Below, in pieces: positions 17,553 to 19,285 of a stretch of 64,000 bases of DNA (position 1 is its first letter; every line of letters begins with the position of its first letter). Position numbers and translations under genes: made by a program. Origin of the DNA: Candidatus Paceibacter sp. (GTDB taxonomy: Bacteria > Patescibacteriota > Minisyncoccia > UBA6257 > JAGOQP01); contig DYGB01000003.1 of NCBI GenBank assembly GCA_020724905.1, positions 1,431-65,430 on the forward strand. The letters are read 5' to 3'. Under the pieces are notes generated by a model. The model saw only the letters and a list, made by a program, of their open reading frames with translations. It made no database searches and was not told the origin of the DNA.

Positions 17553-19285
17553 AGAGTTTGATCCTGGCTCAGGATGAACGCTGGCGGCGTGGATAAGGCA
17601 TGCAAGTCGAACGCTCCTTTTTAAGGAGAGTGGCGAACGAGTCAGTAACACCTTGGTTACCTACCCGTAAGTTGGGCATAACTCATCGAAAGGTGAGCTA
17701 ATTCCCAATAGTCCTATGATGATTCGTCTGAATAGGTAAAGATTTATTGCTTACGGATGGGCCTAGGTCCGATCAGCTTGTTGGTGAGGTAATGGCTCAC
17801 CAAGGCTATGACCGGTAGGGGGGCTGAGAGGCTGATCCCCGACGACGAGACTGAGACACGGCTCGTACACCTACGGGTGGCAGCAGTCGAGAATATTCCA
17901 CAATGGGCGAAAGCCTGATGGAGCGACGCCGCGTGGAGGATGAAGCATTTCGGTGTGTAAACTCCTTTTCCGCCGGAGAAAGTCGCAAGACTGATAGTAC
18001 GGCGGGAATAAGTGGCTGCAAACTTCGTGCCAGCAGCCGCGGTAATACGAAGGCCACAAGCGTTATCCGGATTTATTGGGCGTAAAGGGCGCGTAGGGGG
18101 CGCTGGAAAGTCTGCGGTTAAATCTCGGGGCTTAACTCCGAAATCGCCGTGGAAACTTCCGCGCTAGAGAGCGTTAGAGGTGGATGGAACGCACGGTGTA
18201 GGGGTGAAATCCGTTGATATCGTGCGGAACACCAAAGGCGAAGGCATCTTACTGGGGTATTCCTGACCCTGAGGCACGAAAGCGTGGGGAGCAAAAAGGA
18301 TTAGATACCCTTGTAGTCCACGCCCTAAACGATGCTGATTAGCTGTCTCGAGTATCGACCCTCGGGGTGGCGTAGCTAACGCGTTAAATCAGCCGCCTGG
18401 GAAGTACGAGCGCAAGCTTAAAACTCAAAGGAATAGACGGGGACTCGCACAAGCGGTGGAGCATGAGGTTTAATTCGATGATAAGCGAAGCACCTCACCA
18501 GGGCTTGACACTCTGACGATTGTCTCGAGAAACCGAGACGTTCCTGGTTTACCAGGACGGCAGAGCAGGTGCTGCACGGTTGTCGTCAGCTCGTGACTTG
18601 AGTTGTTCCCTTAAGTGGGGTAACGAGCGCAACCCTTATTGTCTGTTACAAGTGTCAGACGAGACTGCTTCATTTTTGAAGAGGAAGGTGGGGATGACGT
18701 CAAATCAGCGTGGCCCTTTGATGCCCTGGGCTACACTCATGCTACAATGGTTACTACAATGGGCCGCCAAGTCGCAAGACGGAGCTAATCCCATCAAAAG
18801 TAGCCTCAGTTCGGATTGGAGTCTGAAATTCGACTCCATGAAGTTGGAATCGCTAGTAATCGCGGATCAGCACGCCGCGGTGAATACGTTATCGAGTCTT
18901 GTACTCACCGCCCGTCACACCAGGGGAGCCGGAAATACCTAAAGTTCTATTCTGTAGGATTAGGGTAGGTTCGGTGACACGGGTGAAGTCGTAAGTCAGT
19001 TGCGACCTTCGAGAAGTAATTCTTGAAGAAAAACTTGGCTATATGCTGGAACACCTGAGTATCCAAAACTACTTATTTGTAAGAATAAGTGACAAAGTTA
19101 TTGGTGCAGAAAATCAGCAGGGAAGTTCAACTTTTGTTCAAAAACAAAAGAGTAACCCCTCAGAGACTACACGCCGAGCTCCTTTCAAGTTGAAAGGATG
19201 GAGATATAGTCCATGCCGTATGGCGACATATGGAACTACATGAACAAGGCACGTGTAGCGGAAGCTGTGCGTGAATCAATTAATA
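17553..19285 (+). rRNA. rrs: 16S rRNA gene interrupted by a 250-nt group I intron near the 3' end; unlinked from 23S
   Basis: Starts AGAGTTTGATCCTGGCTCAG; 515 region GTGCCAGCAGCCGCGGTAATAC at 18028; AAGTCGT|intron|AACAAGG; helix 45 with GGAA loop retained (cacgtgtagcGGAAgctgtgcgtg). Leader/trailer processing stem 17517-17532 pairs with 19375-19392. The 3' tail reads GAAUCAAUUAAUAC (no CCUCC). Confidence 0.9.
18993..19242 (+). ncRNA. group I intron in 16S rRNA (after U corresponding to E. coli ~1498), no ORF
   Basis: Exact R element TCAGAGACTACA (19162-19173) and S element AGATATAGTCC (19200-19210). Q-like AATCAGCAGG. Exon U before the 5' splice site can pair with intron GCGAC (19002-19006) to form P1 with a U-G wobble. 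Intron ends in G; joining the exons restores AAGTCGTAACAAGG. Confidence 0.85.

Follow-up and report, generated by a model that had tools for sequence, protein, structure and literature searches.

Introduction

Group I introns at position 1498 of the small-subunit (SSU) rRNA were described by Nawrocki, Jones & Eddy (2018, PMC6125680), who found three of them in archaea (IB4.8, IB4.19, and IB4.26) at a site that was new at that time. Here we analyze an insert at the same position of the 16S rRNA gene of Candidatus Paceibacter sp., whose genome is Parcubacteria-like and belongs to the Candidate Phyla Radiation (CPR, or Patescibacteria). The insert lies on the + strand at 18993-19242 of a 64,000-nt stretch of contig DYGB01000003.1 (assembly GCA_020724905.1), which we call the window and to which all coordinates below refer, on the + strand unless marked. 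The archaeal introns share with it the insertion position, the rRNA, and the group I class, and their hosts likewise are ultrasmall organisms with reduced genomes; IB4.8, at about 290 nt, is also of a size that leaves no room for a large open reading frame (ORF). Those hosts are Nanohaloarchaeota and Micrarchaeota, whereas ours is a bacterium, and the likeness is one of site and description, the label IB4 being that of the original authors.

The closest parallel by host is the survey of Tsurumaki (2024, PMC11270868), which placed CPR 16S group I introns at a site named 16IS10 and insertion sequences encoding LAGLIDADG proteins at position 1498. It counted 49 ORF-less group I introns in CPR 16S genes and found that the same sites host versions with an ORF and shorter ones lacking it, whose sequences outside the ORF are closely alike. 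The 16IS10 introns agree with the insert in site, in host group, and in the Rfam model that detects them, and the published surveys (PMC11270868) bear out the statement of a preliminary description of this locus that rRNA introns are typical of CPR bacteria. Two further systems are relevant. The introns at positions 1917, 1923, 1931, and 2262 of the large-subunit (LSU) rRNA, known from bacteria, archaea, and organelles, have R and S elements identical to those of the SSU/1498 family, and both groups carry single-motif LAGLIDADG homing-endonuclease genes (HEGs) in peripheral loops; the LSU introns differ in host gene and in internal guide sequence (IGS), and those at L1917 and L1931 lack P2 (Haugen 2007, PMC1995217), whereas P2 of the window intron is 9 bp long and capped by a GNRA loop. 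Giant sulfur bacteria have 16S genes with group I introns, a system cited in PMC11270868 for which splicing was shown experimentally (Salman et al. 2012). The host phylum there differs from that of the window. The sites in the work of Salman et al. of 2012 are reportedly 795, 1078, 1396, and 1495.

Results

Boundaries of the insert

As read from the sequence, the insert is exactly 250 nt long. The 16S gene up to 18992 reads ...GGGTGAAGTCGT, the insert begins with AAGTCAGTTGCGAC and ends with ACTACATG, and the junction letters run ...GGTGAAGTCGT (18992), then AAGTCAG...ACTACATG (19242), then AACAAGGCACG.... Excision restores GUCGU|AACAAGG. In the E. coli rrsH gene AAGTCGTAACAAGG begins at 1492 (AAGTCGT = 1492-1498), which places the insertion between U1498 and A1499, at the top of helix 44 and adjoining the decoding centre. 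The ligated exon junction expected after splicing is GGGUGAAGUCGU|AACAAGGCACGUG, and the empty site in the 16S background of the window is GGTGACACGGGTGAAGTCGTAACAAGGCACGTG. The insert is preceded by U and its final nucleotide is G. On sequence alone the splice boundaries are ambiguous by three positions (T|AA...G|AA); the ends are settled at 18993-19242 because the U·G pair of P1, the covarying P9.0, and the terminal guanosine (omegaG), all described below, fix them. We note that the Rfam intron alignment stops at G19233, the 3' end of P9, 9 nt short of G19242. This position was rejected as the 3' splice site, since cutting there does not restore the 16S sequence and P9.0 covariation indicates G19242.

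Identification as a group I intron

The Rfam model RF00028 (Intron_gpI) matches 18983-19233 over model positions 1-253 with 80 bits (E = 1.1e-18; gathering score 50 bits), and this is the sole intron match in the window. The three conserved core elements are present: R (TCAGAGACTACA) at 19160-19171, S (AGATATAGTCC) at 19202-19212, and Q (AATCAGCAGG) at 19112-19121. The P3-P8 core folds with the P and Q elements paired as P4 and the R and S elements paired as P7, the 5' exon pairs with the IGS as P1, in which a U·G wobble marks the 5' splice site, and P9.0 and P10 would position omegaG at the 3' end. The minimum free energy (MFE) of the intron fold lies well below that of 200 shuffled sequences (z = -4.46), and the unconstrained single-sequence MFE fold recovers most of the same helices. 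Taken with the more than 100 contigs that carry homologues at the same site and with the covariation among them, these data make us highly confident that 18993-19242 is a compact group I intron, free of a homing-endonuclease gene, in the single 16S rRNA gene of this CPR genome. The preliminary description had proposed an ORF-less group I intron of 250 nt, with R, S, and Q-like elements, whose removal restores the 16S sequence in the helix 44 strand of the decoding centre, and which follows a U able to pair with the IGS GCGAC and ends in G. Each of these statements holds, the group I assignment now resting on the RF00028 score, on covariation in 49 same-site relatives, and on the published surveys, and the P1-P9 secondary structure it asked for could be built with coordinates.

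A family of introns at SSU/1498

Scanning the GTDB species genomes with a pattern made of the R and S core gave 120 loci, most of which are 23S introns at sites 1917, 1923, 1931, 2262, 2500, and 2604. Seven occupy the same 16S site as the window intron and come from genomes labelled as Actinomycetota metagenome-assembled genomes (MAGs; L016, L111), Nealsonbacteria (L044), Kaiserbacteria (L117), Patescibacteria (L018, L081), and an unclassified bacterium (L051). All seven follow a U and end in G, the ends not having been a selection criterion, and a final G is found in 8/8 same-site introns from a pattern that did not demand it. A site-specific pattern, R...S...GAACAAGG, run on Joint Genome Institute (JGI) metagenomes returned 107 further stretches. 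From both scans we extracted 101 related SSU/1498 introns (102 with that of the window), which range from 217 to 757 nt. The window intron is 68-74% identical over most of its length to four of them (L196, L177, L212, and L081; blastn), and its nucleotides 5-250 align with 173.7 bits to the family profile, whose 49 sequences include that of the window.

Covariation was examined in an alignment of 49 non-redundant ORF-less members, each with 10 nt of exon per side. RNAalifold recovers P1, P2, P3, P4, P5, P6, P8, P9.0, and P9 from it, and P7 and P10 were added to these helices for the pair count. Across the 59 pairs tested, 96.8% of the cells are paired, as against 34-42% after a shift of the partners by 1-3 columns. 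Double-sided changes occur in 32 of the 59 pairs (411 cells), and none of 500 shuffles matches any observed measure.

Secondary structure

In the Rfam alignment P1 pairs 18988-18994 (exon GUCGU plus intron AA) with 19000-19006 (IGS, UUGCGAC) and closes loop L1 (18995-18999). Its U·G wobble, formed by U18992 at the 5' splice site and G19002, is invariant (49/49), and in L018 and L081 a change of exon G1497 to A is offset by a C-to-U change in the IGS, giving exon GUCAU with IGS GUGAC. P2 has 9 bp (19007-19015/19020-19028) under the GNRA tetraloop GUAA (19016-19019); all seven tested pairs covary and almost every member has a GNRA-type loop here. P3 joins CUUGGC (19034-19039) to GCCGAG (19173-19178), with compensatory changes in four of six pairs. 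P4, formed by the P and Q elements (19045-19049/19114-19118), encloses J4/5, P5, and P5a-b. P5 (19055-19057/19107-19109) contains the pair U19056-A19108, which is C-G in 37 relatives, and the P5a-b extension occupies 19063-19104 in both the constrained and the free MFE folds. P6 (19119-19122/19157-19160), which covaries among the 49 relatives, carries an 8-bp distal hairpin, P6b (19131-19138/19143-19150).

Complementarity read from the sequence gives P7 as G19163-C19212 together with GACUA (19165-19169)/UAGUC (19207-19211), with A19164 bulged; this helix would form the guanosine-binding site. The P8 hairpin (19180-19187/19191-19198) has compensatory changes in three of five tested pairs and is followed by J8/7 and the 3' strand of P7, the S element region GGAGAUAUAGUCC (19199-19212). 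P9 (19216-19222/19227-19233; GNRA loop GCGA at 19223-19226) shows compensatory changes in six of seven pairs. It is enclosed by P9.0 (AUG 19213-19215/CAU 19239-19241), in which 3/3 pairs covary: the first is AU in 28 members, GC in 16, and GU in 2, the second CG in 22, UA in 22, and GC in 4, and the third GC in 47, AU in 1, and UA in 1. The covarying P9.0 ends right next to the G that precedes AACAAGG, which identifies G19242 as omegaG, the final nucleotide of the intron and its 3' splice site. A possible P10 pairs GUU (18999-19001) with AAC of exon 2 (19243-19245); it is 95% paired across the 49 relatives and hardly varies.

Subgroup

Michel & Westhof reportedly set subgroup IA apart in 1990 by the extra helices P7.1/P7.2 between P3' and P8. 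No P7.1/P7.2 is found in the window intron, where a single nucleotide, C19179, separates P3' from P8, and this argues against IA. Subgroup IC3 has the compact core of tRNA introns (Azoarcus/Anabaena) with L2 and L9 tetraloops. In the window intron L2 and L9 are GNRA loops and P9.0 is present; by sequence it is closest to introns of rDNA rather than of tRNA genes. The family profile matches the LSU/1931, 1917, and 2262 introns over positions of about 35-243 of 251 (E = 1e-30 to 1e-42). Because its closest relatives are the LSU/1917-1931-type rDNA introns and because the SSU/1498 introns, like those at LSU/1923/1931, were typed IB4 by Nawrocki (2018, PMC6125680), the window intron is probably IB4-type. 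The choice between IC3 and IA offered in the preliminary description was thus probably mistaken.

Conservation in independent assemblies

Two contigs from other assemblies, L230 (JGI) and L231 (Logan assembly of SRR5011275), contain the intron without a single difference, and the exon-intron-exon stretch is the same in all three independent assemblies, that of the window included. In a related species (L206) the intron lies at the same site with 248/250 identical nucleotides and exon 2 with 48/48, while the flanks have diverged, with identities of 95.9% in the trailer, 94.4% in the response-regulator gene, and 77% in a pilin gene. The intron is thus conserved like rRNA, which fits purifying selection, as would be expected if splicing must persist in an essential gene. 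Contig L230 is 100% identical to window positions 16470-19936 except for a 483-nt block in exon 1 (17936-18418, variable regions V3-V5 of the 16S), where 121 differences leave about 75% identity. Either the window or L230 is probably chimeric there, or the block may have been exchanged. On this question the complementarity in helix 3 was compared, and both versions carry the same 3' strand.

Coding content and relatives with endonuclease genes

The sole ORF in the intron encodes 66 aa (19043-19243). A Pfam search with it gave no match, so that the window intron encodes no maturase candidate, and no homing-endonuclease gene, the mark of a mobile intron, was found in it. SSU/1498 members that are 646-691 nt long have a gene for a 160-180-aa protein with a single LAGLIDADG motif, which matches Pfam LAGLIDADG_1 (E = 1e-15 to 1e-17). 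The break in the profile alignment of the 646-757-nt members falls at the distal loop of P6, where the window intron has only the 8-bp hairpin. We therefore read the window intron as an endonuclease-less derivative of a mobile family that homes to a universally conserved site, and with only a hairpin in the P6 loop the window copy was presumably inherited vertically. The proteins assigned to position 1498 in PMC11270868 are LAGLIDADG_2 (and _3), as opposed to LAGLIDADG_1 in the relatives recovered here; several intron or HEG lineages may use the site, or the Pfam calls may differ.

In the 757-nt intron L182 the P6 loop holds a gene for a 23S_rRNA_IVP four-helix bundle (Pfam E = 3.5e-31) in place of the LAGLIDADG gene. 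In long members such as L148, L160, and L210 the LAGLIDADG frame reaches upstream into the ribozyme core. The peptide A-D-N-Q-Q, conserved among them, is a translation of the P5'/P4' strand GCnGACAAUCAGCAG, and therefore these nucleotides work in the RNA fold as well as in the protein.

The JGI gene caller annotated two protein genes in L230, one at 2581-2781 (window 19043-19243, the 66-aa ORF) and a 45-aa ORF over the 16S 3' end. Both are probably spurious calls that arose because the rRNA gene is interrupted. The idea that the insert exists to encode the 66-aa protein has in its favor that the ORF appears in the ORF listing and was called in L230; the protein has no Pfam match, its frame crosses the ribozyme core with the NQQ part being the translated Q element, and that frame is not conserved, the ORF-less relatives varying by indels throughout the stretch. 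We give this idea practically no weight.

The interrupted 16S gene

Exon 1 of the 16S gene (E. coli 1-1498) covers 17546-18992, with an Rfam SSU_rRNA_bacteria match of 1362 bits over model positions 1 to about 1490, aligned to GAAGUCGU. Exon 2 covers 19243-19287, its 3' end being approximate and its length set by analogy with E. coli 1499-1542, and contains helix 45 at 19250-19273 (loop GGAA). The Rfam 16S match as given (17546-19042) wrongly threads helix 45 onto the P2 hairpin of the intron.

After helix 45 the sequence (19274-19290) is AAUCAAUUAAUACAC, and the 3' tail of exon 2, AAUCAAUUAAUACA, is without the CCUCC anti-Shine-Dalgarno (anti-SD) motif. Similar tails without CCUCC occur in 33/102 hosts of the SSU/1498 family, and the anti-SD is lost in about half of Parcubacteria (PMC9297842). 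The missing CCUCC raised the possibility of a further insertion close to the 3' end of the 16S, which was rejected in view of these 33 hosts and of the published loss (PMC9297842). SD-like motifs are not enriched upstream of the 42 window ORFs of at least 150 aa (GGAG in 4/42, as against 3.2 expected from the control). A -10-like box, TATACT, GATATACT, or a close variant (CATACT), stands at about -13 to -7 of many start codons, among them those at 14901, 27903, 33048(-), 33454, 40436, 48815, and 53982. Boxes at this position would put transcription starts at or near the start codon, and leaderless mRNAs would fit the missing anti-SD; leaderless translation goes unmentioned in a 2022 paper on CPR ribosomes.

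The 16S gene stands alone, with no 23S or 5S Rfam match in the window. A terminator-like hairpin followed by a T-run lies at 19413-19443, about 130 nt downstream of the gene. The neighbors are genes for L31 and a release factor upstream and, downstream, a response regulator, two near-duplicate type IV pilins, and PilB.

Probable hosts outside the CPR

Of the 102 SSU/1498 introns, 68 have a host 16S gene that ends in a CCUCC tail, and a canonical helix 45 (GUAGCC...) is present as well in 60 of these 68 hosts. The CCUCC-tail hosts comprise L016, L111, and L051 and about 60 JGI soil contigs (e.g., L124, L138, L157, and L188), and two of them are GTDB MAGs labelled Actinomycetota. From these 16S features the family seems to be common in non-CPR soil bacteria, and this suggests that it reaches beyond CPR bacteria and DPANN archaea. 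According to PMC11270868, no group I intron at site 1498 had been reported from other bacteria.

Five further loci labelled Microbacterium, Agromyces, or Actinomycetota (L003, L008, L014, L082, and L105) hold group I introns with the same R and S (Rfam 53-59 bits). They lie outside rRNA, with no adjoining tRNA, and are presumably in protein-coding genes or intergenic DNA. In the Actinobacteria-labelled MAG L111, at about 2609-2680, the sequence just upstream of CCTTGTACACACCGCCCGTCAC is unlike 16S, which suggests another insertion in the same 16S gene near E. coli 1380-1390.

Discussion

Group I introns follow an established guanosine-dependent, two-step pathway, on which we model the reaction at this locus. 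In the pre-rRNA the IGS (18999-19006) would pair with the last five exon nucleotides (GUCGU) to form P1, and U18992·G19002 would mark the 5' splice site. An exogenous guanosine held in the P7 site (G19165-C19211, beside the bulged A19164) would then attack after U18992. P10 (GUU 18999-19001/AAC 19243-19245) and P9.0 would bring omegaG19242 into the same site, and the freed 3'-OH of U1498 would attack after G19242, so that the exons are ligated and the universal GUCGUAACAAGG of the decoding region is restored. Given the position of the insert, we infer with good reason that splicing is required for ribosome function.

Several points weigh against the reading of 18993-19242 as a group I intron as we have typed and modelled it. 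P4 is invariant across the family set, and P7 is invariant as the search patterns forced it, so the guanosine-binding helix draws no support from covariation. In J8/7 the window has G19201, where 100/102 family members have A; the variant is common to the window and the related contig L206. The IB4 label, though probable, rests on indirect typing, and the labels of different authors disagree, Haugen (2007, PMC1995217) having called the L1917/L1931 introns IC1-like and Nawrocki (2018) those at LSU/1923/1931 and SSU/1498 IB4. Splicing itself and its steps are inferred from the established pathway, whereas the fold, the boundaries, the family membership, and the conservation of the site are shown.

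Other explanations of the insert were considered. Had the intron decayed, the insert would be retained, or would be excised without ligation like the RNase III-processed intervening sequences, leaving a fragmented 16S. The absence of an endonuclease gene and the J8/7 substitution G19201 could be taken as signs of decay, and bacterial rRNA insertions that are unspliced or merely cleaved exist (discussed in PMC11270868). All core elements are intact, however, with the P1 U·G pair, P9.0, P10, and omegaG in place, and identical or near-identical copies persist in strains and species with diverged flanks. The decoding centre would moreover be disrupted if the rRNA were broken, or carried 250 extra nt, between U1498 and A1499, and CPR genomes usually have one 16S copy (PMC11270868). 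We regard decay as very unlikely. The joining of a foreign intron into the window 16S during metagenome assembly is extremely improbable: 16S genes are prone to chimeric assembly and L230 does differ in the exon 1 block, but that block ends 575 nt upstream of the intron, the exon-intron-exon stretch agrees in three independent assemblies, and the related species L206 has the intron at the same site.

A different question is whether a true group I intron at this site would depend in vivo on a protein cofactor, either a maturase or a host chaperone. Proteins are required in vivo by many group I introns, and a LAGLIDADG protein can serve as a maturase (PMC11270868); the window intron has lost its ORF, is AT-rich (41% GC), and is small. 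It has nonetheless the peripheral elements expected of small introns that suffice by themselves (GNRA loops L2 and L9, extended P5 and P6, and P9.0), and its 66-aa ORF, without a Pfam match, offers no candidate maturase. Such dependence appears unlikely.

We also considered that an endonuclease-less intron might be kept for a benefit to its host, as a nucleotide-sensing checkpoint on 30S maturation, because splicing needs free guanosine/GTP and precedes the formation of the top of helix 44 (U1498, C1402). Compatible with this idea is the near-perfect conservation across strains and species with diverged flanks in an intron without selfish drive. If true, the checkpoint would act in an organism with very few ribosome-biogenesis factors. 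It is a long shot at best, and a simpler explanation is selection that merely preserves the ability to splice in a single-copy gene that is essential.

Conclusions

The window intron is a compact, endonuclease-less group I intron whose site, fold class, host group, and ORF-less state are already published; as a further instance it adds little new biology. Mature 16S should be annotated as 17546-18992 plus 19243-about 19287, whereas automated tools ended the 16S at 19042, placed the 3' end of the intron 9 nt early, and called a spurious 66-aa gene. The more than 100 SSU/1498 introns assembled here, two thirds of them in hosts with an anti-SD, are of some value for studying the spread of rDNA introns.

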